A program made the translations under genes and the position numbers. From a virus: a DNA stretch of 11,571 nt. The stretch is taken from the UHGV virus genome UHGV-0116702, one strand, 5' to 3'. Below the pieces are notes generated by a model. The model searched no databases, was not told the origin of the DNA, and saw only the letters and a list, made by a program, of their open reading frames with translations. Positions 1-11,505 of this stretch are shown here, in pieces (position 1 is the first letter of the stretch; each line of letters opens with the position of its first letter).

Positions 1-57
1 CGAATAGCTTCACTGTGTGGACGTGCTGCATGAACCGGGCGGCTGTCTAAAATCATC

Positions 58-1720
58 AAGGTCTAAATACACTATGAGGATGATTAGGGGTTGGTAGATG
101 ATTCGGATGAAGCATCCTCATTACAAGACCAACTATAGAACTACCTGTTAATAACAGGACAATATCAGGTGAATCCCTATTCAATTTAAAGGCATTTTCC
201 CAAGTATCTAAGCAGTTTTACACAGATTCTATGCAGTATCGGTATAGTCTCTTTTTACCCTAACTTATTGAAATATATAGAGAATCTGTGAAGTCTCTTT
301 TCAGGGAACTATGCAGGGTGTTAGTCGTTCCTCTCTCGACCCTTAGAAAAGTGCTATATACAGGACTATATAACGCTATTCATGCAGTTGGTCACCATAT
401 GTTACAGTTGCAAGAGATAACAATCAGCTATGTGAAAGTTAGGAAGTGATGGTTACAGTTGATTCGGTTAGTTCTAGGAATCAACCTCATAGTTCCTTCG
501 TAGTTCCTCTTAAAAAATCACTTACAGACACCTTAATATCTATACAGATTTCATGTAGAACACGATTAGTGCGTAAAACAGCTATTATGTTAAAAACGCA
601 CTGTATACGTATCAGTACTGATTTATAAGGGTTTTGTGTATTGGATGATAAGAGGCTATGCAGCACCTTGAGAGCATGTCTTCTAAGTCATTGATACATA
701 AGGTCACAGAAGTTTGTGTCTGTTACAGAGAAAACTGGATAGGATTTCACAGAACTATAAAATGTTACAGCTATTGATAGGTTAAATCTTCTTGATAGAT
801 GCTTTGAAGTGTGGTGAAGGTTTCTTGAGGTGGAGCTAAACAGATGCTATGAAGAAAGTCAATGATATTTTAACTGCTTTTGCAAAGGGGGTGCTATATC
901 GTGAATCTGGGGTACTTAACAGCCATCAATTGAGTGTAGATATTTTTTAAGATTATCGGTGAAGGGGAATGTAGAGGGGGGTACTACGATTTTTATAAAA
1001 ATTTTCAGACTCTGAAAAGTTGCTGTACAGATTTTGCACAATCTTACCAAGCCTCATAGAAAGCTCTGTAGCGAGTTTTAACCCCATTTTTAGGGGTAAC
1101 CTGTAGGTATGTACCACCCACCTTAAAATAAAGGGGTAAAATCGCTTAGAATGCGTTACAGAGCGTCTGAGAAGCTATATTCACAGATTTTACTAAAACC
1201 TCAGACTTTCTAAGTGGTCTTTTTAACAGGAGGGGTTCCCCTATGGTCACATATCCCCTCTCTCGCTTAGTGAGCTACACAGACCTAGAGAACATGCTCT
1301 GTAACGCCTTCACAAACATTGACTAAGGTCAACTTCATAAACTCAGAGTTAAGTTACCTTGAAAGATTCTACCAAGAAACTACACAGGTATTATTTAGTC
1401 TGACTGTGAAGAGATGTTTAACGGGAGGAAGAGAACCATGAAAACCGAAGGTAGGTTCTATCTTAACAGTGACTGTAAGAGATACCTGAAAAGATACTTA
1501 ACAGAACTACCAAGAAGAGAGGGAACGATAAAACCAGAGGTAGTGACCTTGTTAAGTAGGTCGTTTCAAAGTCTCTTAAAAGTCTGTTAAGTAAGGGCTA
1601 TGTGAACAATCTTACCATTTTGTCAATGCTTTTGTCTTTGACCTAAATCAATAAAATGTATCGTTTGATGTGCTTTTAAACAAAATAGCTAAAAAATCTT
1701 TTTAGAGGGGCGCTTCGCTT
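58..1720. other. ORF-poor, motif-dense non-coding region (candidate ori / ncRNA / regulatory hub)
   Basis: The six-frame track shows only one 60-aa ORF in 1.66 kb, and it has no RBS. Region contains the conserved box copies at 1063-1075, 1145-1171 and 1296-1308, recurring CTGTGAAGAG and TTACAG/TTAACAG motifs, and a 17-bp perfect palindrome TTTTCAGACTCTGAAAA at about 1003-1019. Confidence 0.5.
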
Positions 1721-2389
1721 GTGTCACATCCAATAATCCATATCGGTCGTTATCATGGTGGTTCTGATGACTGGCGTACACCGTATCGTCTATTTCATAA
1801 CCTGCATCGTGAGTATAGCTTCAGTCTAGATGGTGCTGCAACTGAGCATGACGCATTGTTGCCACGGTTCACCGATGATATTCACAATCAATCATGGGTT
1901 GGTGAACGGGTCTTCGTTAACCCGCCGTTTAGCATGGCTGAACAGTTCCTCCTAAAAGCCCCTGAAGCTGATGTGTGTGTATGTCTGGTTCCGCACAGGT
2001 CAAAGACAACTTACTGGCTTCGGTGTGTATATACAAACCCCTTCCTGCATGAGATTCGAACGTTACACCGAGCGGTTAAATACCTTCCACCAGCAGGAAA
2101 GAGAGGTGTTGTAGCGCGTTCACCGTTTGCAAGTTGCGTTCTGATATACAGGAACACACCCCGTAAACCGAAGGTTGAAGTTACCCAGACAATCTATTGT
2201 GGCGACACAATGCTTTTACTTGCCGTGGTTAACAGGGGTGGTTTACGTGGAAGACCTCATATACACGATGCACAGACGCTTGACAGGTTGATTAAAATGC
2301 ATGACCAAGGGCAATCCATCAAGAGCATCGCAGAATCGCTAAGAATGCCTCTAAGCACCACTTACAGGATTGTTCAAAGGTTGGGCTGA
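1721..2389 (+). CDS. Phage-type N6-adenine DNA methyltransferase (Dam-like) fused to a C-terminal resolvase/invertase-type HTH domain
   Basis: 222-aa ORF with GTG start 10 nt after a GAGGGG Shine-Dalgarno. N-terminal ~155 aa carry DWRTP, LDGAA and the WVGERVFVNPPF motif with the catalytic NPPF tetrapeptide, typical of the small phage Dam family. C-terminal ~60 aa (GRPHIHDAQTLDRLIKMHDQGQSIKSIAESLRMPLSTTYRIV) match the GRP arm plus helix-turn-helix pattern of Hin/resolvase DNA-binding domains. Confidence 0.7.
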   Translation: MSHPIIHIGRYHGGSDDWRTPYRLFHNLHREYSFSLDGAATEHDALLPRFTDDIHNQSWVGERVFVNPPFSMAEQFLLKAPEADVCVCLVPHRSKTTYWLRCVYTNPFLHEIRTLHRAVKYLPPAGKRGVVARSPFASCVLIYRNTPRKPKVEVTQTIYCGDTMLLLAVVNRGGLRGRPHIHDAQTLDRLIKMHDQGQSIKSIAESLRMPLSTTYRIVQRLG

Positions 2390-2428
2390 AATTCTCATAT
2401 AGAGCACTGATTACGAGAATGTTAAAGA

Positions 2429-2462
2429 GGCGATTTCCCCTTTCTGGGGTTATTCGCTTTTT
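2429..2462 (+). terminator. Candidate intrinsic terminator downstream of the methyltransferase gene
   Basis: GGCGATTTCCCCTTTCTGGGGTTATTCGC: nested stems GCGA/TCGC and CCCC/GGGG, followed by TTTTT at 2458-2462. Confidence 0.4.
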
Positions 2463-2597
2463 ACTGGAAGGGTTATTTTACAGAGGTTTTTCAAACCCCC
2501 TCAATAATAGAAACGAGCAACAAACGAAGAGCGAGAAATAAAATATTGAGACTGGTGAACGGGGTCTGTAAAGATTGTTTAAGGGGGCAGTTAAGAA

Positions 2598-2630
2598 GGT
2601 GGCTCTCCCTTTCTGGGGTTATCGCCTTGT
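2598..2630 (+). repeat. Second, degenerate copy of the CCTTTCTGGGGTTAT hairpin motif
   Basis: GGCTCTCCCTTTCTGGGGTTATCGCC shares an ~18-nt core with the hairpin at 2429-2462 but has a weaker T-tract (CTTGTATCTT). Confidence 0.35.
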
Positions 2631-2654
2631 ATCTTAGTGAGTCCAGGAAGTTCT

Positions 2655-2835
2655 CTGTGAAGAGTCTTGTCAGTCCTTTATATTGGGTGATTACAACTCA
2701 TTGAAAAATAAGTGTTTTTAGAATTTACTGTTAAGGTTACAGAGTTAACTGTGAAGAGACTTGTCAGTTCTCTATATATGGCTAATTACAACTAATTGAA
2801 AAATAAGAACTTTTAGAAATTACTGTCAGAGAGGT
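2655..2835. repeat. Two tandem ~94-bp direct repeats (about 85% identity over ~75 bp)
   Basis: Copy 1 starts CTGTGAAGAGTCTTGTCAGTCC at 2655; copy 2 starts CTGTGAAGAGACTTGTCAGTTC at 2749. Both contain ATTACAACT, ATTGAAAAATAAG and TTTTAGAA-TTACTGT. The CTGTGAAGAG head also occurs at 1403-1412 and in variant form at 286-295 and 1468-1477. Confidence 0.6.
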
Positions 2836-2946
2836 GAATACTTGATAGATACAGCTTTCCGGTTCTGTCAAGCTATTTTTTCATAGATAGCACAAAATGC
2901 TAAAGATACCCCTATACCATCTCGTACAGGGGATTTTGGAGGGAGT

Positions 2947-3123
2947 TTAACGGGGGTCTGTGTGGTCATTATCCTTAAGGTCAAGCGTCCATGTATGACC
3001 GAACAGTTTAAAGACAACAAGCACTCTGACAAGGACGTAACGAAGTAGCAGACCTGCAATAAGTCCAATACCTCCACCAGCCCATACATCAGGTGACCCC
3101 AGTTCAGGAGGGAGATTTACCAT
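2947..3123 (-). CDS. Hypothetical small membrane protein (58 aa, one predicted TM helix)
   Basis: ATG at 3123-3121 preceded by AAGGA with 6-nt spacing on the minus strand. Product MVNLPPELGSPDVWAGGGIGLIAGLLLRYVLVRVLVVFKLF... has a glycine-rich hydrophobic stretch. The track ORF 2947-3165 is the same frame extended to a TTG. Divergent from the 3421 operon. Confidence 0.3.
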   Translation of the reverse strand: MVNLPPELGSPDVWAGGGIGLIAGLLLRYVLVRVLVVFKLFGHTWTLDLKDNDHTDPR

Positions 3124-3136
3124 TAGTTTTCCTTGT

Positions 3137-3235
3137 AAGACGCTCTCAATCGCATTCTGACACAAAAAGTACCTGACCTTATGAGTTGACCTTAAGAGGC
3201 TGTTTAACTCGTTACAGAGCGATTGAAGAGGTCTG
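3137..3235. repeat. Inverted-repeat-bracketed element, copy 1 (conserved left and right arms, divergent interior)
   Basis: Left arm AGACGCTCTCAATCGCATTCT (3138-3158); right arm CTGTTTAACTCGTTACAGAGCGATTGAAGAGGTCTG (3200-3235). Arms are imperfect reverse complements sharing GCGATTGAG and GTCTG. Interior contains a doubled TGACCTTA. Confidence 0.55.
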
Positions 3236-3341
3236 TGTGCAATGCAATAACCATGTGACCACTCTCATAGCCACGCCTTTATATTTTACTCTCCCCATAG
3301 AACCATTATACCATAGATGTTAATAAATTGTTAAAAAATGC

Positions 3342-3370
3342 TTGACATTAGTCTTTGAAACTGCTAGTAT
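3342..3370 (+). promoter_or_regulatory. Candidate sigma70-type promoter for the 3421-4658 operon
   Basis: TTGACA (3342-3347), 17-nt spacer, TAGTAT (3365-3370); A/T-rich upstream tract TTAAAAAATG; about 50 nt upstream of the ATG at 3421. Confidence 0.45.
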
Positions 3371-3420
3371 TGTACATATAAGTTAACAGAGAATTAACAA
3401 TTATAAGGACTAGCTTATGA

Positions 3421-3900
3421 ATGAACGACAGAGAATTTAGAGCGATGCTTCAGGCATCAAGAGAACGCAAAGGCATTGACGAAGTAATTCGGGCAATTAC
3501 ACCGAGGAGTCGTTATATGCCAACCAGAAAGAGCACCCAGAACACTATTAAAAATTATTTGGCTAACTTCGACAGCTACGAGCAACTACCAAGTAAGCTT
3601 GATGATATTTTCATTGGATTCTGTAGAAGTGAAGGCCACCCGAAATACAACAAAAAACTATTTTATCTTCTAAAGAATCTTGACGAAATTAACTCAGCTA
3701 CCGTGACAAATTATCTTCAGCGACAAGCAACCAGACTTAGTTATGAATTACCAAGCGATAAATATTGTGCATTGCTTGCTGTAATGTGTGCAAAGCTAAT
3801 TGGTATTGTTGAACATCATATTGCCGTTGGTAATATTGAGCCAATGGAAAACGAGCAACCAGACTTTGAGTTTGACCCGTATATTTTGGAGGAATTTTAA
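3421..3900 (+). CDS. Hypothetical protein (159 aa) with acidic C-terminal tail
   Basis: ATG with AAGGA SD about 11 nt upstream; first gene after the candidate promoter; ends ...ENEQPDFEFDPYILEEF. No family recognised by eye. Confidence 0.6.
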   Translation: MNDREFRAMLQASRERKGIDEVIRAITPRSRYMPTRKSTQNTIKNYLANFDSYEQLPSKLDDIFIGFCRSEGHPKYNKKLFYLLKNLDEINSATVTNYLQRQATRLSYELPSDKYCALLAVMCAKLIGIVEHHIAVGNIEPMENEQPDFEFDPYILEEF

Positions 3901-3901
3901 A

Positions 3902-4183
3902 ATGAAAAACAAACACACATTAACCCGCATTTCAGAGGAAGCTTTTAACGAGCTTACCAGAATTAAACGAGCTACTAACTTGCCTCATCAAACTGTAATG
4001 CAGCTTGCAATTGCTAAAGAGGTTACTGAGTCGGATTTACTGAAATATCCAGTCTCTAAAGGTCGTAAACACATCCGAATTAGTCAGGACGCTTTAGCTA
4101 CTTTGAAGGCGCTTAACGGCTTTAAGATTGATATTGCCCGTCTATTGAGTCTTAAAATTCACAAGCTGTCTCTGGAGGTCTGA
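3902..4183 (+). CDS. Hypothetical small protein (93 aa), possibly DNA-binding
   Basis: ATG at 3902 lies 1 nt after the upstream stop, with GGAGGA about 12 nt upstream. Preferred over the track's TTG start at 3800, which overlaps the upstream gene. Two internally similar segments (TLTRISEEAFNELTRIK / KHIRISQDALATLKAL) suggest a repeated motif; the DNA-binding idea is speculative. Confidence 0.55.
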   Translation: MKNKHTLTRISEEAFNELTRIKRATNLPHQTVMQLAIAKEVTESDLLKYPVSKGRKHIRISQDALATLKALNGFKIDIARLLSLKIHKLSLEV

Positions 4184-4185
4184 TT

Positions 4186-4458
4186 ATGAAGCAATGGCGA
4201 GATGATATTAAACGGTTCTTTGCAACTTACTTCATGATTAATTACGAAACAGGAATGCTTGAATGGATTGATGGTGGAGAGGTTAAGACAAGAGATGACG
4301 CTTACGGTAATCCAATGATTCGTTATGGCACTCGTGATTATTATGTGAAATATGTCATCTGGTTTTTGCATCATGAAGTTCAGGCAACTAAAAAAATTAT
4401 CTTCAGGGATGGTAATAAAAGAAATTGCCACCCAAACAATTTACTACTGGAGATTTAA
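4186..4458 (+). CDS. HNH_3-family (homing-endonuclease-like) small protein, possibly catalytically degenerate
   Basis: 90 aa; ATG 8 nt after GGAGG and 3 nt after the upstream stop. C-terminal YYVKYVIWFLHHEVQATKKIIFRDGNKRNCHPNNL matches the HNH_3 pattern (YYVHRLV...VxHIDGNKxNNxxxNL), but by my manual alignment the HID histidine is Phe (IIFRDGNK). Confidence 0.55.
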   Translation: MKQWRDDIKRFFATYFMINYETGMLEWIDGGEVKTRDDAYGNPMIRYGTRDYYVKYVIWFLHHEVQATKKIIFRDGNKRNCHPNNLLLEI

Positions 4459-4658
4459 TGCTATGTATTAAATTCGAATATTTGACAGATAAAATGATTA
4501 AGCATGTATCAGACCTGCTCATCAAAGAAGATGGTTTCGGTGATGTTTGCAATCCAAAAGATATCTTCATTCACGCCACCAGCCCAAATGAAACACTGAA
4601 AACAGCAGTTACAGCGGAATGGTTTGAACGAAATAAAGTAGAATTAGGCTATTGGTAG
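4458..4658 (+). CDS. Hypothetical protein (66 aa)
   Basis: ATG overlaps the upstream stop (TAATG) with GGAG 5 nt upstream, indicating translational coupling. Track ORF 4425-4658 is the same frame from a TTG inside the HNH gene. Confidence 0.5.
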   Translation: MLCIKFEYLTDKMIKHVSDLLIKEDGFGDVCNPKDIFIHATSPNETLKTAVTAEWFERNKVELGYW

Positions 4659-4692
4659 TCCGAGACTTTAAGAGAAATTAGAAAAACAGCTT

Positions 4693-4816
4693 CTCAGACG
4701 CTCTCAATCGCATTCTAACGCAAAAAACTATCTTATTTTAGGGTGGGTAATACCACTGTACAGGCTACCCCTGAAAAAGACTGTTTAGCTCGTTACAGAG
4801 CGATTGAGGAGGTCTG
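4693..4816. repeat. Inverted-repeat-bracketed element, copy 2
   Basis: Left arm CAGACGCTCTCAATCGCATTCT (4695-4716); right arm CTGTTTAGCTCGTTACAGAGCGATTGAGGAGGTCTG (4781-4816). Arms are nearly identical to copy 1 (right arm 35/37) while the interior differs in sequence and length. Ends 22 nt before the ATG at 4838. Confidence 0.55.
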
Positions 4817-4837
4817 GTAAAAAGGAGATTTTAGGAA

Positions 4838-5161
4838 ATGAACAATTACGAATTACAGATTTTCGTTGATAGCGACACCGCTATGATGATTCAGGCTTTC
4901 ACTGATGTAGGTGTTAGCATTGACTTTGACAGGCTGTTAAGGCTAATGGCTGATAACTCAGAAACAATTGAAGATTTTATTCAGTCGGTGGAGTTTAACG
5001 AGCCTCGAATGATGCTACCAATTAAAGACAGCAACATGAAAAGATTGGTTATCGAGCAAACGAACAAATTCAGCATTAGCCCTGAAAGATATCTCAAGGC
5101 AGCTATAGCAATTTTGTACGCTGACAATATTCTGGTGACGGATTCTGTGAGGATTCACTAA
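4838..5161 (+). CDS. Hypothetical protein (107 aa)
   Basis: ATG 9 nt after AAAAAGGAG SD; no recognisable motif. Confidence 0.6.
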   Translation: MNNYELQIFVDSDTAMMIQAFTDVGVSIDFDRLLRLMADNSETIEDFIQSVEFNEPRMMLPIKDSNMKRLVIEQTNKFSISPERYLKAAIAILYADNILVTDSVRIH

Positions 5162-5238
5162 TGGGTTTAATAATTGCTTGGGCGTTGCTTGGCTTATTTG
5201 TTGGTTGCTGGGTAGGTAACACAGTAAATAAGAATTGA
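5161..5238 (+). CDS. Candidate 25-aa hydrophobic microprotein (MGLIIAWALLGLFVGCWVGNTVNKN)
   Basis: ATG overlaps the stop of the 107-aa gene (TAATG). Sequence is almost entirely one TM-like helix with a polar C-terminus. Too short for the ORF track; support is overlap geometry and composition only. Confidence 0.3.
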   Translation: MGLIIAWALLGLFVGCWVGNTVNKN

Positions 5239-5262
5239 TGTTACCAATCTGTTAAAAAGCTG

Positions 5263-5291
5263 TTGACAAATAACCTTGAGCATGACATAAT
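5263..5291 (+). promoter_or_regulatory. Candidate sigma70-type promoter
   Basis: TTGACA (5263-5268), 17-nt spacer, CATAAT (5286-5291). The track's 67-aa ORF 5263-5466 begins inside this -35 hexamer. Confidence 0.4.
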
Positions 5292-5481
5292 TGTATATAT
5301 GAGGATAGTCTTCTATCCGAAGTCTATGAGGAGAGCAATTCTCTCTTATTTTCTTTCAATAATCCGATGGATGGATATTCTGAGTTGGAAAGGTGCAATG
5401 CTTTTCGTCATGGCCTTTCAGTTTAGTCTGAGAGGCTATCTCAAAAAGTGCTTAATCATTCATTGAACCCTTTACAGCTTT

Positions 5482-5510
5482 GCCCTAACTCATGATTAGG
5501 GCTTTCTTTA
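5482..5510 (+). terminator. Candidate intrinsic terminator
   Basis: GCCCTAA-CTCATGA-TTAGGGC perfect 7-bp stem followed by TTTCTTTA. Confidence 0.45.
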
Positions 5511-5579
5511 AGAGTTTTTAAACAGAGCTTTTAAAGAAAGTTTTTCCTGAAACTTCGTTAACGTTAAAGCAAACCTTCA

Positions 5580-5613
5580 AAGCCCTTCACAGATTATGTT
5601 TAGGGCTTTTCTT
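5580..5613 (+). terminator. Second candidate terminator hairpin (related stem)
   Basis: AAGCCCT - 15-nt loop - AGGGCTT followed by TTTCTT; shares the AGGGCTTT(T)CTT tail with the hairpin at 5482-5510. Confidence 0.4.
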
Positions 5614-5708
5614 AATAGAGCATCTTTAATAAATCGTTAAGTCATCTTCTAAGTGTATTGGCGTTGAAGGTGCTCTATTAAGAAATAACCACTTAGAGGA
5701 AAATTATA

Positions 5709-6419
5709 ATGACAAACGATTTATATATTAACGGTAAAAAGGTTGATAGCTTCGGTGACTGGTCGCCACAGACTGAACATCCAGCTATCACTATCCAGCG
5801 TAAAGAACATGATGAAAGAATTGCACTTGAGCAAGAAATCCGAATGTCACCAAAGGTAATTACCTTTGTAGCTCCTGAGCCTCAAGAGATGCCTGATATT
5901 TGCAAAACTCAAGCATTACTTGAGCTTGAGCGTGAATATTACCCACTGCTGAAAGCACAAAGAATTAAACTTGATATTGCTTACGACAATGTGAAGAACT
6001 TTGAAGAGACTGAAAAGCCAACTGATTTTGATATTGAAGTGGAAATTAGACAAAACCCATTCGTATATTACTCAGTTGAGGATAATGATGGTTTTGGTAC
6101 AGCAAGAGAGAATATCTCAAAAGTTCTTCAAAACATCCCTGAAGGATTCCGTTTAATTGATGTTAGACCAGCTTCACGCGGTACAGGTTCATATATTTTA
6201 CTGTCTGATAAAACAGATGAAGAGATTTGTCAGTTAGCTGAAAAGAATCTACTTGAGCGTCATAGCAAAAAATTAAACAGATTTAAGCAAGAACTTGCTA
6301 ACCAGCTTCAGGCTATGAAAGACCTTATTTCTGCATATGAAACGCAGAAGAAGGTTGCTATGCAGGCTGATATTGAGCAGTTAGTGAAGATTTCTCAGAA
6401 ATACGCAAAGGCACTTTGA
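5709..6419 (+). CDS. Hypothetical protein (236 aa), acidic with helical C-terminal region
   Basis: ATG about 10 nt after AGAGGA SD; long uninterrupted ORF; no family recognised by eye. Confidence 0.65.
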   Translation: MTNDLYINGKKVDSFGDWSPQTEHPAITIQRKEHDERIALEQEIRMSPKVITFVAPEPQEMPDICKTQALLELEREYYPLLKAQRIKLDIAYDNVKNFEETEKPTDFDIEVEIRQNPFVYYSVEDNDGFGTARENISKVLQNIPEGFRLIDVRPASRGTGSYILLSDKTDEEICQLAEKNLLERHSKKLNRFKQELANQLQAMKDLISAYETQKKVAMQADIEQLVKISQKYAKAL

Positions 6420-6444
6420 CTATGAATTAAAAAGGAGGTGATGA

Positions 6445-6648
6445 ATGTTTGATTTAACGGAACGCTATGAACTTATTAAAGCAATTAGCGAGAGATTGAA
6501 AGAACAACCCAACAAACCAAAACGAATCAAATCATCCACCTCTAAACAAAATAACAGAATCAGAAAAATTGCTAAATGGTGTCTGGATAGATTACCAAGT
6601 GATTGTCAGATTGTCGGTGAAGATGGCAATTATTATCTGATTAGGTAA
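6445..6648 (+). CDS. Hypothetical small basic protein (67 aa)
   Basis: ATG 5 nt after AAAAAGGAGG SD; lysine/arginine-rich centre (KPKRIKSSTSKQNNRIRKIAKW). Confidence 0.55.
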   Translation: MFDLTERYELIKAISERLKEQPNKPKRIKSSTSKQNNRIRKIAKWCLDRLPSDCQIVGEDGNYYLIR

Positions 6649-6673
6649 AGAATTGGTTGGGTGAAAATCTACG

Positions 6674-6714
6674 GGAGAGATTATCGAGTGACATCGGTAG
6701 TTTCTCCTTTTTTT
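6674..6714 (+). terminator. Candidate intrinsic terminator
   Basis: GGAGAGA (6674-6680) pairs with TTTCTCC (6701-6707) with one G-U pair, then T7 (6708-6714). The 20-nt loop is long, so confidence is moderate. Confidence 0.4.
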
Positions 6715-6736
6715 GTATGTGTGCTACATGAAATCT

Positions 6737-6787
6737 GTAAAGCTAATATCCACACTGAAAAATAGAATTTACGTAGCTCACGCTTAA
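6737..6787 (+). repeat. Direct repeat A (51 bp, 38-bp perfect core) immediately upstream of the tape-measure gene
   Basis: GTAAAGCTAATATCCACACTGAAAAATAGAATTTACGTAGCTCACGCTTAA. Core 6750-6787 is identical to 9024-9061. Contains a -10-like TAGAAT with no good -35. Confidence 0.8.
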
Positions 6788-6804
6788 AGAGGTGAAAAAT
6801 ATGA

Positions 6805-8985
6805 ATGAGCAAATTCACAGTTGATAGTTTTATCGTTGAACTAGGCTTCAATGAAAACGTTATTAAGGGCTTGCAAAGAGTTGAAAAGGCAGCTTTGCAG
6901 TCAGCACAAAGAATTGAACGTAATTTGAATAGAGCGTTTAAGGTCGATACCAAGCAACTTGACAGCAACCTGACAAGTTCTTTAGGGCAACTTGAAAGGA
7001 AGTTTAATAAGACCTTTGACAAGATTGAACAGAGAGCAAGAAATACTAAAGCTTTCCAGTTTACCACCAGATTTAATGACACTGTTAATCCTCCAAAACA
7101 ACCGAGACAGCCACGAATTAGCGGCAACAGAGCAATCACAGCAGCGCATAGCGTGAATATGTCTAAGCTTGGTGATATTAATCCGCTGATGGCTAAAATG
7201 TTTAAAGCACAGTATTACAGCTTAAGCGGTAAGGCTGGTAATATTGGAAGTGAAAAGTTTAACGCTGAACTTGCAAAATTAAATCAATCTCTTCGTGAAA
7301 CGTTGAATAAACTCAGGTCACAGACAAAGACCACCAGCATTAACAATACAAGCGACGCATTTAATAATCTTGCAAGCAATGCAATCAAGTTATCTGGTGC
7401 ATTTTACTCTGTGATGGGTGCTCTTAACGCTTACAAGGCCATTATGAATGCAGGTCTTAAACGAGATTCCGCACAGAGAGCCGCTAAGTTTGTACTTGGT
7501 GATAAAGCATCTGAAGCTGAGGTATTTATTCGAAATTTAGCAGACAAGACAGGTCTTAATATCTCTGAAGGGCTATCAAGCTACGCTAAGTTTGCAGCAG
7601 GTGCTCAGGGTTCTATGTCACAGGAACAGACACAGGAGCTATTTGGTAATGCAACGGCTATGAGTCGCTTAATGGGGCTTTCTAACGATGAGCTAAACGG
7701 CATTTTGAAAGCATTTGAGCAGATGGCGAGCAAGGGCAAGATTCAGGCTGAAGAGCTTCGTGGACAGTTAGGTGACCGTATGGCTGGTGCATTTAAGCTA
7801 TTCGCTGAAGCATTGGGTATGACTGCTACAGAGCTTGATAAAGCGATGAAAGACGGGAAGATTTTAAGTAGTGATACTCTCCCTAAAGTCGCTAAACAGA
7901 TGGGCTTGATGATTGATAAAGCGGGTGGCTGGGCTGAAGTCGCTAAGAGCACTCAGACAGCTTTAGGGAAACTGGCTAACAACTGGGATGATACGATGGT
8001 GAAAATCTTCTCAGGTTCACAGGATGAGCTAAACGGCTTCTTATCCAGCCTGAGTAACCTGCTTAGTGAAATGGGGATGAGTTCATCTATCGCTGGTGAT
8101 GCTATCGGTGGACTTATCGACATGCTTAAAGCTGGTGTGGATGACATCCGTATCTTTAACAATCACCTTGAAGGCTGGATTCTACAGACTAAGAAGTTCT
8201 ATTACAGCCTTGATGACACTAAACGAAAACTACTTGATGAAGTCGGTGATGGTTTTATCAACTTCGTCAAAGGTCTTGCTATAGCGTTATCTGCAAAGAC
8301 ACTATTCAGTGCTGCTACAGGGGTTATAAACCTGACAAGAGCAATCACAACGTTAGGTACAAGAGCTAATCAGGTTGCTGGTCAGGTAGCTACTGGTAAA
8401 GGTGGTGGAAAACTGAAAGGTGTAGCTGGTGGTGTAGGTAGTGCTCTTGCAATTGGTTATGCTGATGACGGTTATGAAACAGCGTTAGCATTAGCTTCAA
8501 TGATTCCACAAATCAGAGGCGTCACTCTTGGTTTATATGCATTGAAGAAAGCACTGGATTTTATGAATCAGGAAGTAGTCAAAAACGCTAATATGCATCC
8601 ATCTGGGGTAGGTGTGGGTAGTGACTTTAATCCCGTGTATTCTGGTGACCCTAATAAACCGAATATGATTAACGAAGGATGGGGTAGAATTTTTAGTTCA
8701 ATGGGTGAATTGTTTAACAATGCCACAATGAATATTGCAAGATTCAATCATCCAGAGTTAAACAACATTAAGCAAGATTCAGCATTAACGAGTGCAGATA
8801 TTCAGAGTCTGAGGGATGAAATCTCTGCTTTAAGTAAGCGTATTCAGGAGCCTGTGAAAGTTTCCTTGGGTGGTGAAGTTGCCATTAAACCAGATGAAAC
8901 CAGCTTTATGACCTTTAGCAGTAATATCTACGACCAATATGCAGAAGCTACGCTATTAAGTTCATCATTCCCAGAAGATGATTGA
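6805..8985 (+). CDS. Phage tail tape-measure-domain protein (726 aa)
   Basis: N-terminal coiled-coil-like segment, then LNGILKAFEQMASKGKIQAEELRGQLGDRMAGAFKLFAEALGMTATELDKAMKDGKILSSDTLPKVAKQMG, which matches the conserved tape-measure core. Downstream there are glycine-rich hydrophobic stretches (ATGKGGGKLKGVAGGVGSALAIGYA). SD AAGAGG is about 13 nt upstream. Confidence 0.7.
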   Translation: MSKFTVDSFIVELGFNENVIKGLQRVEKAALQSAQRIERNLNRAFKVDTKQLDSNLTSSLGQLERKFNKTFDKIEQRARNTKAFQFTTRFNDTVNPPKQPRQPRISGNRAITAAHSVNMSKLGDINPLMAKMFKAQYYSLSGKAGNIGSEKFNAELAKLNQSLRETLNKLRSQTKTTSINNTSDAFNNLASNAIKLSGAFYSVMGALNAYKAIMNAGLKRDSAQRAAKFVLGDKASEAEVFIRNLADKTGLNISEGLSSYAKFAAGAQGSMSQEQTQELFGNATAMSRLMGLSNDELNGILKAFEQMASKGKIQAEELRGQLGDRMAGAFKLFAEALGMTATELDKAMKDGKILSSDTLPKVAKQMGLMIDKAGGWAEVAKSTQTALGKLANNWDDTMVKIFSGSQDELNGFLSSLSNLLSEMGMSSSIAGDAIGGLIDMLKAGVDDIRIFNNHLEGWILQTKKFYYSLDDTKRKLLDEVGDGFINFVKGLAIALSAKTLFSAATGVINLTRAITTLGTRANQVAGQVATGKGGGKLKGVAGGVGSALAIGYADDGYETALALASMIPQIRGVTLGLYALKKALDFMNQEVVKNANMHPSGVGVGSDFNPVYSGDPNKPNMINEGWGRIFSSMGELFNNATMNIARFNHPELNNIKQDSALTSADIQSLRDEISALSKRIQEPVKVSLGGEVAIKPDETSFMTFSSNIYDQYAEATLLSSSFPEDD

Positions 8986-9010
8986 TTTAACGGTGTTCTA
9001 CGTGAATAAA

Positions 9011-9061
9011 GCAAAGTTAATACCCACACTGAAAAATAGAATTTACGTAGCTCACGCTTAA
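9011..9061 (+). repeat. Direct repeat B (copy of repeat A) immediately downstream of the tape-measure gene
   Basis: GCAAAGTTAATACCCACACTGAAAAATAGAATTTACGTAGCTCACGCTTAA; 48/51 identical to 6737-6787, offset 2274 bp; lies about 80 nt upstream of the ATG at 9142. Confidence 0.8.
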
Positions 9062-9141
9062 CAGAGAAAATACTTATATATCAAAGGCTTGGTTAAAAAT
9101 GATTAAAATACACTAAGCCTTTGAAATCAAAGGAGAATTTA

Positions 9142-9930
9142 ATGATTTTTAGCAATCAAATCCGCTACAGTGGCAAAGATGGCGTTTACTTCCACTTAAG
9201 AGATAATGTAGATGCCTTCTTAACCTTATCAGCAACTGAGAACATGGAATTTGATAGCCCTATGCAGGTGACTACACAGAACATGCAATCAGGGCAAACC
9301 GTCACAGATAATGTGCAAAGAGCACCCAGAACAATCACTATTAGCGGTGTCGTTGTAGTTGGCTATGAAGGGAGCTTATTATTAACTCGTCAGGGTCAAT
9401 TAGTAGAGAACTTCATCGACACTCTTGAAAACTGGCGTGACCAGAAACAAATTATTTCGGTCATCTGTAAAGACGGAATTAAAATTGATGATTCCATTAT
9501 CACAAGTTTTAAAGCCTCTAAAGATGTTGGAATTTCAAACGGATTAAGAATCCAACTAACTTTTCAGGAAATTAACTTCAGAGCTGTTGTGGGGCAGACT
9601 GATATCTCGGCTGCAACTGGAAAAGCCGCGACTACGAACGATGGTGGTGTGACCAGTAAGAAGAATGCAGGTAACGTGACCACTGAACGCAATAACGCGC
9701 CTATGCTATCGTGCAAAGAGCTAATGAGTATTAGCGATGTATCCGGTTACGCTCCAGCTATCAGAAATGATATTCTCGATGCTCAGATTAAGTGTAATAA
9801 GGCTTGGAAGCTGGACTATTCAGACTTAACAGAAGCTGAAAAAACCAACGTCACCAATGCTAATAGTAACGCTGGTCGGGTAGCTTCAAAGCTTAAAAAG
9901 TACTCAGTGAACCCTCACAAAAAATACTAA
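9142..9930 (+). CDS. Hypothetical protein (262 aa); possibly tail-associated on positional grounds only
   Basis: ATG 6 nt after AAGGAG SD; the track ORF from 9121 is the same frame from an upstream TTG. Sits directly after the tape-measure gene, where siphophages usually encode the distal tail protein, but I see no diagnostic motif. Confidence 0.55.
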
Positions 9931-11450
9931 ATCTCTACTACATCAACATCTATTAAACCCCTCTCAGTGACTTCAGAAAGCGACTGTATAGCCTCTGTAA
10001 CGTCCTCTGAGGGGTTTTCTGTTATTGATAAGGTGATTGACTTACCATTGTGAAAAGTTACTTTACAGCGACGTTTAGCAGTATTTAAAACGACCTCTTT
10101 AACAGCACTTTTGATTATCAGTTGTGCTTCAATTCTCCCCGCCTTTGTAGTCAAGTCACAATCAGACAAACACCCCACATCAATAGATTTAAGGCGTTGT
10201 GTCTCCTTCTCGATATCCGCATCAACCTGTGATAGCTCACCTTTTAACTGCTTTAGTTTGATGGTAATAGCTGACAAATCTTCAATTTCAAGTGATAGCT
10301 GTACCAGCTTTTCAATATTGCTTGAGATGTGTTCACGGTGTAGCCTCAACATATCTATGGTATTCGTCGTATCGCTATCAAATCGGTCAAGACGAGATAG
10401 CAGAGTAAGCAATGTACCATCGGTTTGCTTACGTGAAAGTCCTTTAGCACTACAACGGTTTTCATTACGAAGAGGACAACGATAAATCCCGTTTCTTGTA
10501 TCACTAAAGCCTGTGATAATCAGAGCATGACCACATTCAGAACAACGGATAACACCTTTAAAGAGATTCACACTCAATGGTTTATCTGAAACAGACCTCT
10601 TTCCATAACGAGAATGTGATAGTTGTTGAACTTTGTAGAATGTTGTTTCATCTATAATTGCAGGATAATAACCAGCTATCTCCTCACAGCCTTTAGGTGT
10701 GAAGTAACCAATTACAGAGCGATTCTTCAGAAGGTCTTGTACTGAGGTTTGACCAAACTTACCAGCTTTATATTGGTTAAGCGTCTGGTGACCTTCATCA
10801 TTAAGAGTCCTGACAATCGCCCAGATAGATTTGCCCTCTAACCGTAGCTGAAAGCACCTCTTCACAGTTTCTACCTTCTCAGGTATTACAGAGAAGCTTT
10901 TACGGTCATCATTCAGCCTTAACCATGCAGGACAACGCCTAGAAATCTTGATACCAGCTTTAGCAGCTTCTTTCTTTGCATCCCATGCAGCTTGTATACG
11001 CTCAGCCTTACGTAATGATTCCTCATGCGCCCTTTGCATTATCAGAATGCTTTTAATCAGGGATAACGGGTCTCTTAAGCTTTCCTTTGTGTAATGTTCA
11101 CCATCGGACAAGGTGACTACATCTACACCAGAGCGAAGAATGTTTCGTAATAGCTCACTTGCTCGGTCTACGGCCTGACGTGACAAACGGTCTAAACTCT
11201 CGATTAGTAGTGTATCACCAGCTTTAACAAGCCCTTTCTCGATAGCGGTTAAAAAGTCACCTAAGCCACCTTTCAAGTGCTTACCAGTGAATCCACTCAC
11301 ACCTAAATCACGGAAGGATAAATCTTGGTCAAGGTAGTACTCAGGTTGAGCCTTAAGCCAGTCATTAACCATCTTAGACTGTCTGCGTAGTGAATCACCT
11401 CGGGATTGCTTCTCAGATGAAAACCTGATGTAAGAAATGGCACGTTTCAT
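9927..11450 (-). CDS. Large serine recombinase (integrase, 507 aa)
   Basis: N-terminal resolvase-type catalytic domain with the nucleophile motif YIRFSSEKQ and arginines in DRLSR; central recombinase region; Cys-rich zinc ribbon CSECGH...[11 protein letters not shown]; C-terminal coiled-coil-like segment. GAGGTG SD 4 nt before the ATG. Confidence 0.9.
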
Positions 11451-11476
11451 TGTTCACCTCAAAACTGATGCCCTAG

Positions 11477-11505
11477 ATTGTATCGTTTTAGATGGTGTAT
11501 TTAAA
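11477..11505 (-). promoter_or_regulatory. Candidate promoter for the recombinase gene
   Basis: On the minus strand: TTTAAA, 17-nt spacer, TACAAT, about 25 nt upstream of the recombinase ATG. The -35 is weak. Confidence 0.3.

Follow-up and report, generated by a model that had tools for sequence, protein, structure and literature searches.

The 11,571-nt stretch analyzed here (UHGV virus genome UHGV-0116702; hereafter the window, to which all coordinates refer) carries a complete ∼11.3-kb serine-integrase island lying in yecE, between yecN and yecD of Escherichia coli, and within this island three copies of a palindromic intergenic cassette, the subject of this report. The chromosomal match stops at window position 55, which marks the island junction, and the island itself occupies 56-11480. 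It encodes a Dam-type methyltransferase with a resolvase-type helix-turn-helix (HTH) tail, several small unknown proteins, a 90-amino acid (aa) HNH protein, unknown proteins of 107 and 236 aa, a tape-measure protein, a Dit-like baseplate protein and a large serine recombinase. Within the tape-measure and baseplate genes, some segments share 88-95% DNA identity with virulent Felixounavirus phages; the rest of the island gave no match to the Felixounavirus phage garuso, and no capsid, terminase or replication genes were recognized in the island. The island would appear to be a satellite or parasite, as yet undescribed, of Felix O1-like phages. Sister islands are integrated at yecE, yciI/tonB, mdtG and ymdF/wrbA, and a literature search returned no description of the island family or of the element.

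A preliminary description of the window had reported three copies of a conserved ∼24-bp box, in alternating orientation, within 1063-1308 and had related one of them to a further site at 4693-4719. All four strings quoted in that description were found at the positions it gave, and the identity between 1145-1171 and the reverse complement of 4693-4719 was reproduced at 23 of 27 positions. At up to four mismatches the 27-mer has only these two sites in the window, against a chance expectation for such a pair that the authors estimate at ∼2e-6, and it was absent from the 86-kb garuso genome even at up to six mismatches. The 11-nt core CGYTACAGAGC gave seven matches at up to one mismatch versus 0.17 expected, a count reached in none of 200 shuffles. 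In an unbiased k-mer test, TTACAGAG/CTCTGTAA was the most over-represented 8-mer of the entire window (10 observed versus 0.71 expected). The box observation is real and non-random. The inventory, however, required revision. Only one of the three reported copies is a full 27-bp box, the other two sharing just an 11-13-nt core. Rather than being separate sites, 1063-1075 and 1145-1171 form the opposing arms of a single ∼135-nt imperfect palindrome; the third box, at 1296-1308, is not a conserved copy but a 10-nt indel that only 2 of the 12 aligned islands carry; and both a further copy of the palindrome (copy B, 3134-3234) and the 3′ arm at 4786-4816 had been overlooked.

The boxes belong to longer inverted repeats that relate 1044-1131 to 4733-4820 (88 nt) and 1146-1207 to 4657-4718 (62 nt), and a repeat search placed a third copy, in direct orientation, at 3132-3235. 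The three copies, termed A, B and C from left to right (Table 1), can all be aligned, and each is an imperfect palindrome of 100-135 bp with self-complementary ends. The 5′ arm reads CAGAC-GCTCT[GTAAC/CAATC]-GCATTCTAA and the 3′ arm CTCG[T/C]TACAGAGC..., the two being separated by a center of 40-90 nt. The ∼25-bp box corresponds to CTCAGAC-GCTCTGTAAC-GCATTCTAAG or a variant of it, and is accompanied by an inverted partial copy on the other side of the center, which is interchangeable. Folding returned a long interrupted hairpin with a 20-27-bp stem for each copy. The fold of copy C reached −47.8 kcal/mol (z −5.6), copy B gave a z of −1.8, and copy A gave −3.3 and −4.5 on its two strands; opposite strands of the copies fold about equally well. 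The copy A hairpin spans ∼1044-1176, with a further ∼30 nt of 5′ flank that also resembles copy C. Copy B lies directly 5′ of the Shine-Dalgarno (SD) sequence of a leftward small-peptide open reading frame (ORF), and copy C occupies the gap between the stop codon of a 67-aa gene and the ATG of the 107-aa gene, its hairpin covering 4694-4817. The best-supported description of the element is a family-specific palindromic intergenic cassette composed of a ∼25-bp box and an inverted copy.

The element was found in 330 of 5426 complete E. coli genomes (∼6%), at a median of one and a maximum of five places, and every context inspected lay inside an island of the same family. It was absent from 50,697 phage records at the sensitivity of blastn. 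Occurrence in wider phyla was considered and rejected: a scan of genome and viral contigs with a 17-base pattern gave ∼100 matches in unrelated phyla versus ∼70 expected by chance (authors' estimate), and the contig matches from the pattern scan, L015 and L110 included, bore no resemblance to the element by BLAST.

Individual islands carry one to three cassette copies, and these behave as discrete modules. Copy B is a clean 101-bp presence/absence polymorphism with one constant junction (25 loci occupied, 17 empty), the flanks ...TTTCCT and GTGTGCAATG... being fused directly in empty islands. Copy A is an alternative cassette, the place of which is taken in five other islands by a leftward terminator and an ACC-rich segment between the same flanks. 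For the slot directly upstream of the 107-aa gene, 97 loci were collected by means of the 107-aa protein, independently of the element, and 95 of them had enough upstream sequence to score. The preliminary description had suggested looking for the box in related islands and had taken the boxes to form inverted pairs; a box-palindrome was present in all 95 scored loci, and the inverted pairs recur in five forms with differing geometries (C, A, D1, D2 and E). Type C accounts for 46 loci, type D, with its two subtypes, for ∼44, type E for three and type A for one. In D2, the previously reported box is the 5′ arm and CTCCCTCTGTAACCCGCAT the 3′ arm, a polarity opposite to that of the A-type. The E-type is a near-perfect palindrome of the ATTCTAAGCGATTTTA part; the 10-nt GCTCTGTAAC, found in the A-type 5′ arm, is missing from its 5′ arm. 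Across slot types either polarity of the box relative to the loop is found, and in the C-type copy of L183 the central segment is inverted. The element type tracks the upstream gene and not the downstream one: C accompanies HNH/hyp67, and D accompanies a 128-aa HTH protein. An HNH gene lies directly upstream in 37 of the 46 C-type loci, and D-type islands are mostly without one.

Among C-type loci, the mean pairwise identity is 0.92-0.99 over exactly 4656-4835, compared with 0.5-0.7 upstream and 0.7-0.8 downstream. At D1-type loci, block and upstream gene are equally conserved, and identity drops only past the ATG of the 107-aa gene. The 107-aa protein (4838-5161) has no Pfam domain and falls into 3,446 clusters at 90% identity, nearly all from E. 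coli, Shigella or Citrobacter. The block in front of the 107-aa gene in L001 and L114 is C-type and 95-100% identical, and the allele that follows it shares only 23-24% identity; another allele from this divergent clade lies behind an A-type block in L004. Beyond the divergent alleles, DNA similarity returns at 5191-5295. Given that near-identical blocks flank divergent alleles and that similarity resumes downstream, the 107-aa gene behaves as a replaceable cassette between conserved non-coding blocks. Searches with hyp107, hyp93, hyp159 and hyp236 gave no match in Pfam, PHROGs, NCBIfam or Protein Data Bank (PDB) sequences, and a single-sequence AlphaFold model of hyp107 was unusable (predicted local distance difference test score of 46).

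The cassettes were also examined as candidate RNA structures. No Rfam 15 match was obtained at E ≤ 1 on either strand of the whole window, and a scan of the window for transfer RNA and transfer-messenger RNA found none. RNAalifold applied to 16 distinct copies yielded no common long helix and a covariation term of 0, because the A-type and B/C-type arms pair in different registers and only the sequence of the arms is conserved. None of the 43 variable stem sites in A, B and C is a compensated pair: 14 are G·U-compatible in the sense orientation alone and 17 in the antisense orientation alone, and at 12 the pairing is broken on both strands. Given that variation within types is low, this covariation test is of limited power. 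None of the three copies was called as an intrinsic terminator, and on the minus strand of copy C there is a U-rich run only 3-7 nt past the stem. The 3′ end of the hairpin abuts an SD sequence in three contexts, namely C, the E-type, and B on the minus strand.

Cores resembling the arms also occur singly outside the palindromes (Table 1). The last ∼75 nt of the integrase gene, which contains one of these, is nearly invariant as a whole. Neither the solo core at 722 nor that in the integrase gene is informative, because their surroundings are equally conserved.

Table 1. Positions of the cassette copies, their arms and related cores
Feature	Position	Strand	Basis
Copy A, A-type cassette	1044-1207	−	Inverted repeats versus 4657-4820; three-copy alignment; fold z-scores
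Copy A 3′ arm; includes core 1063-1075; pairs with 1153-1165	1052-1079	+	String match; folding
Copy A 5′ arm seen from the plus strand; 27-bp box CTTAGAATGCGTTACAGAGCGTCTGAG	1145-1171	+	String and mismatch search
Copy B, B-type, short center; 101-bp indel polymorphism	3134-3234	+	Alignment of occupied and empty sites
Copy C block	4656-4835	+	Fold; pairwise identity
Copy C 5′ arm; second 27-mer of the preliminary description	4693-4719	+	String and mismatch search
Copy C 3′ arm TAGCTCGTTACAGAGCGATTGAGGAGGTCTG; end is 6 nt upstream of AAGGAG, the ribosome-binding site of the 107-aa gene	4786-4816	+	Repeats; folding
Solo core GTTACAGAG in left non-coding arm; invariant in 8 islands	722-730	+	Island alignment
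Solo arm-like core; GC-flanked 10-nt indel GCTCTGTAAC	1296-1308	+	12-island alignment; only in window and L001
Solo core GTTACAGAG at ∼94-nt tandem-repeat junction	2736-2744	+	Core search
Core GTTACAGAGG within 3′ end of integrase gene; present in 12 islands	9992-10002	−	Core search
13-nt exact match TTACAGAGCGATT to B/C 3′ arm, inside integrase gene on antisense strand	10705-10724	+	Repeat search

The preliminary description had likened the boxes to operators or to recombinase-accessory sites. For the second of these ideas no direct support was obtained: the boxes are unlike the att arms of the integrase, and the window contains no small resolvase or invertase. The att arms are GTGTATTTAAAC and GTCTAAATACAC, with the junction at window position 55, and a sequence relationship between the box and the attL or attR arms of the large serine integrase was rejected. 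A small serine recombinase is encoded in some sister islands, and a tblastn search with that of L004 found no match in the window. A common fold but different recognition helices characterize the resolvase-type HTH tails carried by Dam-HTH, by HTH128 and by the small recombinases of sister islands. Mimicry of a helper promoter or origin was likewise rejected, since the core is not enriched in Felixounavirus garuso and the box is absent from it at up to six mismatches. The heptamer CTCTGTA is scattered in garuso, with 3 of 32 copies in a gene-free region (P ∼ 0.03), and is not concentrated there.

The operator idea is partly supported. It is in keeping with the conserved arm sequence, the enrichment of the core word, the solo cores, and the lack of compensation or strand bias in the stems; what has changed is the unit, which is a palindromic cassette of 100-135 bp that is swapped, inserted or deleted en bloc. 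The explanation favoured here, and advanced tentatively, is that the cassette is a DNA-level cis-regulatory module of paired inverted protein-binding boxes that also acts as a homology patch for module exchange. It is specific to one family of ∼11-kb serine-integrase islands that resemble satellites of Felixounavirus-type phages. One cassette always stands at the junction between an upstream module (the HNH/67-aa genes or the HTH gene) and the hypervariable 107-aa gene, with A, inverted in the left arm, and B, before the leftward small-peptide gene, as optional copies. The paired inverted boxes would be read as double-stranded DNA by an island-encoded, possibly helper-induced, DNA-binding protein, and this protein would set the expression of the neighboring transcription unit. 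Because the cassette is nearly identical between otherwise diverged islands, it may in addition provide the homology patch at which gene modules, particularly the 107-aa gene, are exchanged. The several resolvase-type HTH proteins encoded by the islands are consistent with such a scheme.

A number of observations weigh against this explanation. The promoter scan returned no σ70-like match of at least 10/12 in or beside the cassettes; weak 9/12 matches lie inside A and C, only two in all and at non-equivalent positions, and the best promoter candidates are outside the cassettes, at 3342-3370 (+), 3334-3305 (−) and 5263-5291 (+). No cognate protein could be assigned among the Dam-HTH_7 tail, HTH128, the small recombinases and hyp93 (ribbon-helix-helix-like by eye only), and the HTH recognition helices differ from island to island. 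Conservation spans the whole 180-bp block and not ∼20-bp sites alone. Part of the upstream fall in identity comes from comparing loci in which different genes adjoin the same block, and on the downstream side the fall reflects a gene that is intrinsically hypervariable. Substitutions occur in the D-type core in 6 of 44 copies, and the solo cores, sitting in uniformly conserved DNA, contribute no independent signal. Finally, the stable long hairpin (z to −5.6) with a 3′ end that abuts an SD sequence would suit an RNA role equally well. An extended version, in which the box-palindromes would be cis control elements of undescribed E. coli satellites parasitizing virulent Felixounavirus, would switch the island on at infection through a satellite or helper factor or through complementary boxes like those of P4 CI-RNA, and would drive rapid cassette exchange of a 107-aa effector gene, is improbable in its entirety.

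The strongest competitor to the regulatory DNA module is an orientation-independent RNA stem-loop, transcribed in operons or 5′ untranslated regions (UTRs) and acting in RNase III-type processing, in stability, or in translation control at the 5′ edge of ribosome-binding sites. This possibility is considered doubtful. Every copy gives an interrupted stem of 20-27 bp, and D1 and D2, unrelated-looking occupants of the same slot, all form hairpins as well. Copy C lies between co-directional genes, with neither a terminator nor a strong promoter, and 6 nt separate its 3′ base from AAGGAG; copy B, read on the minus strand, runs right up to the SD of the leftward small-peptide ORF and has the strong promoter 3334->3305 upstream of it; and the E-type 3′ arm overlaps an SD. 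Register shifts and a flipped center would also be tolerable for a hairpin that works in either orientation. However, a consensus helix is absent, the variable stem sites lack both compensation and strand bias, the two strands fold equally, and Rfam gave no match. Structure alone would leave the conserved arm sequence and the solo cores unexplained, and neither copy A nor the D-type adjoins an SD.

It is unlikely that the cassette is a selfish non-autonomous palindromic element, spread by transposition or gene conversion and without function for the island, similar to miniature inverted-repeat transposable elements, enterobacterial repetitive intergenic consensus (ERIC) sequences or Correia elements. 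Such an origin would account for the terminal inverted repeats (CAGAC...GTCTG), for the junction context shared by the three copies (CT before and GT after the element), for the precise polymorphism at B, for near-identical copies, one to three per island, in diverged islands, and for the 10-nt solo core, which resembles a footprint. Yet the element is confined to one island family and to three fixed slots, one of which is filled in every scored locus, as would not be expected of a parasite. There is no unambiguous target-site duplication, only an ambiguous 1-2-nt repeat (CT) at B, and no transposase, the 236-aa protein that is called a transposase by PGAP in some genomes being without a family match. 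Moreover, A and the occupants of the 107-aa slot are replacements and not insertions.

A cis DNA site for helper-dependent replication or packaging (ori, pac or cos-like), recognized as a palindrome or cruciform, is regarded as very unlikely. A satellite needs sites of this kind, and the universally filled slot, the strong conservation and the HNH gene upstream of most C-type loci, which recalls the HNH-cos-terS order of HK97-like phages, would fit such a role. The box and the element are nevertheless both absent from Felixounavirus genomes, D-type islands mostly lack the HNH gene, the cassette occurs in several copies per island and in several non-homologous types, and the 107-aa protein has no terminase or Rep signature.

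The last alternative, RNA-based transcription control through complementary leader boxes, as in λ nut-like boxA/boxB antitermination or P4-type CI-RNA immunity (seqA/seqB/seqC), takes its appeal from the outward orientation of the copies (A leftward, B and C rightward) with intrinsic terminators downstream at 5329, 5482 and 6673, from three boxes in −,+,− order within 245 nt as in P4 seqA-seqB-seqC, and from a 9/11 likeness, judged by eye, of the A-type arm CGCUCUGUAAC to rrn boxA (UGCUCUUUAAC). It is regarded as highly unlikely, given that the boxA likeness is post hoc (by the authors' estimate, chance alone would give ∼3 such 11-mers in the window), that the commonest arm, the C-type, is a poorer match and the boxA-like stretch is buried in the stem, that no adjacent boxB at the right spacing and no upstream promoter were mapped, that the third box is missing from most islands, and that no N-like or RNase P-type features were found.

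Several further features of the island were noted. To the right of the copy A slot, 1222-1250 (AACAGGAGGGGTTCCCCTATGGTCAC) includes an AGGGG-TT-CCCCT palindrome along with an ATG and an SD-like AGGAGG, and is kept in most aligned islands; a conserved coding sequence is disfavoured because indels follow the ATG. The methyltransferase at 1721-2389 is of the Dam type (N6-adenine), with a C-terminal GRP-arm and HTH_7 domain typical of serine resolvases, and in sister islands this variable left-arm gene is replaced by a small serine recombinase of one of two types or by a 278-aa unknown protein. Between copy B and the methyltransferase gene, 1 kb of gene-free DNA contains ∼94-nt tandem repeats (2649-2826) and a 33-nt repeat pair (2421-2453/2590-2622), which could be iterons or an origin-like region. 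A strong leftward σ70-like promoter (TTAACA-18-TGgTATAAT, 3305-3334 on the minus strand) points toward a ∼58-aa ORF at 2950-3123 (−). Its product (MVNLPPELGSPDVWAGGGIGLIAGLLLRYVLVRVLVVF...), annotated by PGAP in L002, has one hydrophobic helix, and this peptide could be type-I-toxin-like or holin-like.

A second repeat family consists of a 69-nt block at 6719-6787 and 8993-9061 (+), with 87% identity, located immediately upstream of the tape-measure and baseplate genes; a partial inverted copy is present in the left arm at 534-563 (−). A role as island-specific promoters or 5′ UTRs of the two phage-derived genes is possible for these blocks. A word family separate from the boxes, CTGAAAAG-N3-CTTNACAGA, occurs in the intergenic DNA of the island at 293, 1012, 1497, 1591, 2662, 3383, 9057 and other positions. 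Related words (CTTAACAG and CTAACAAG) are dense in a 1.6-kb gene-free region of phage garuso (48,950-50,650; L124/L125), and Felixounavirus phages have an unannotated stretch with ∼80% identity to window 1498-1571. Metagenome contigs with the island are often 11-13.5 kb, close to the size of the island (L135, L139, L142, L145, L159, L161, L171, L177, L178, L191 and L194), and could be excised, circular or packaged forms.

Among known systems, the closest analogue of the cassette would appear to be the promoter-early stem-loop (PeSL) cassette of T4-type phages, reportedly described by Arbiol et al. in 2010 as a "mobile regulatory cassette." Both are short, near-identical intergenic stem-loop cassettes, repeated in a phage-type genome, that flank variable ORFs and mark the edges of exchanged modules. 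PeSLs, however, are ∼50-70 nt long with a recognizable σ70 early promoter, whereas the palindromes described here are 100-135 bp, are without a promoter of at least 10/12, and have no sequence similarity to them. ERIC elements, also known as intergenic repeat units, and the Correia elements of Neisseria are likewise imperfect palindromes of ∼100-150 bp with terminal inverted repeats, found in transcribed intergenic sites in either orientation and with clean presence/absence; by contrast, they number tens to hundreds of chromosome-wide copies with TA duplications, compared with three slots in one island family, no clear duplication and one slot that is always filled. Serine-recombinase sites (res subsites, hix/gix, attP/attB) resemble the element in the ∼27-bp unit with weakly inverted outer hexamers (CTYAGA...TCTRAG), the variable center and the inverted pairs, and the islands encode both serine recombinases and resolvase-type HTH domains. 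They differ in that the island's own att arms are dissimilar, no small resolvase or invertase is encoded in the window, conservation of the right half-site does not extend to the D and E types, and no inverted A-to-C segment was seen in the islands examined.

The attC sites of integrons share the imperfect palindrome (57-141 bp in attC) after an ORF, conserved terminal boxes, a center variable in sequence and length, and an association with cassette exchange; unlike in integrons, there is no IntI tyrosine recombinase, and the RYYYAAC/GTTRRRY core is unmatched. The RNase III hairpins of T7 and λ are also repeated, long, interrupted intercistronic hairpins placed just before ribosome-binding sites, but those are conserved in a strand-specific manner, whereas the present element shows neither strand bias nor covariation and one copy is read antisense.

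In summary, the cassette is a new sequence family of a general kind that is already known. It is unusual in how conserved it is, in filling one slot universally, and in residing in a satellite-like island that is apparently undescribed. It offers a worked example of a conserved palindrome that is kept without RNA-type covariation, which bears on how hairpin-forming repeats are to be read in genome scans. If the cassette is a control and recombination module, it would provide a direct experimental handle on an apparently undescribed, common island family and, if this is true, it would show how the island senses its helper and diversifies one hypervariable gene.

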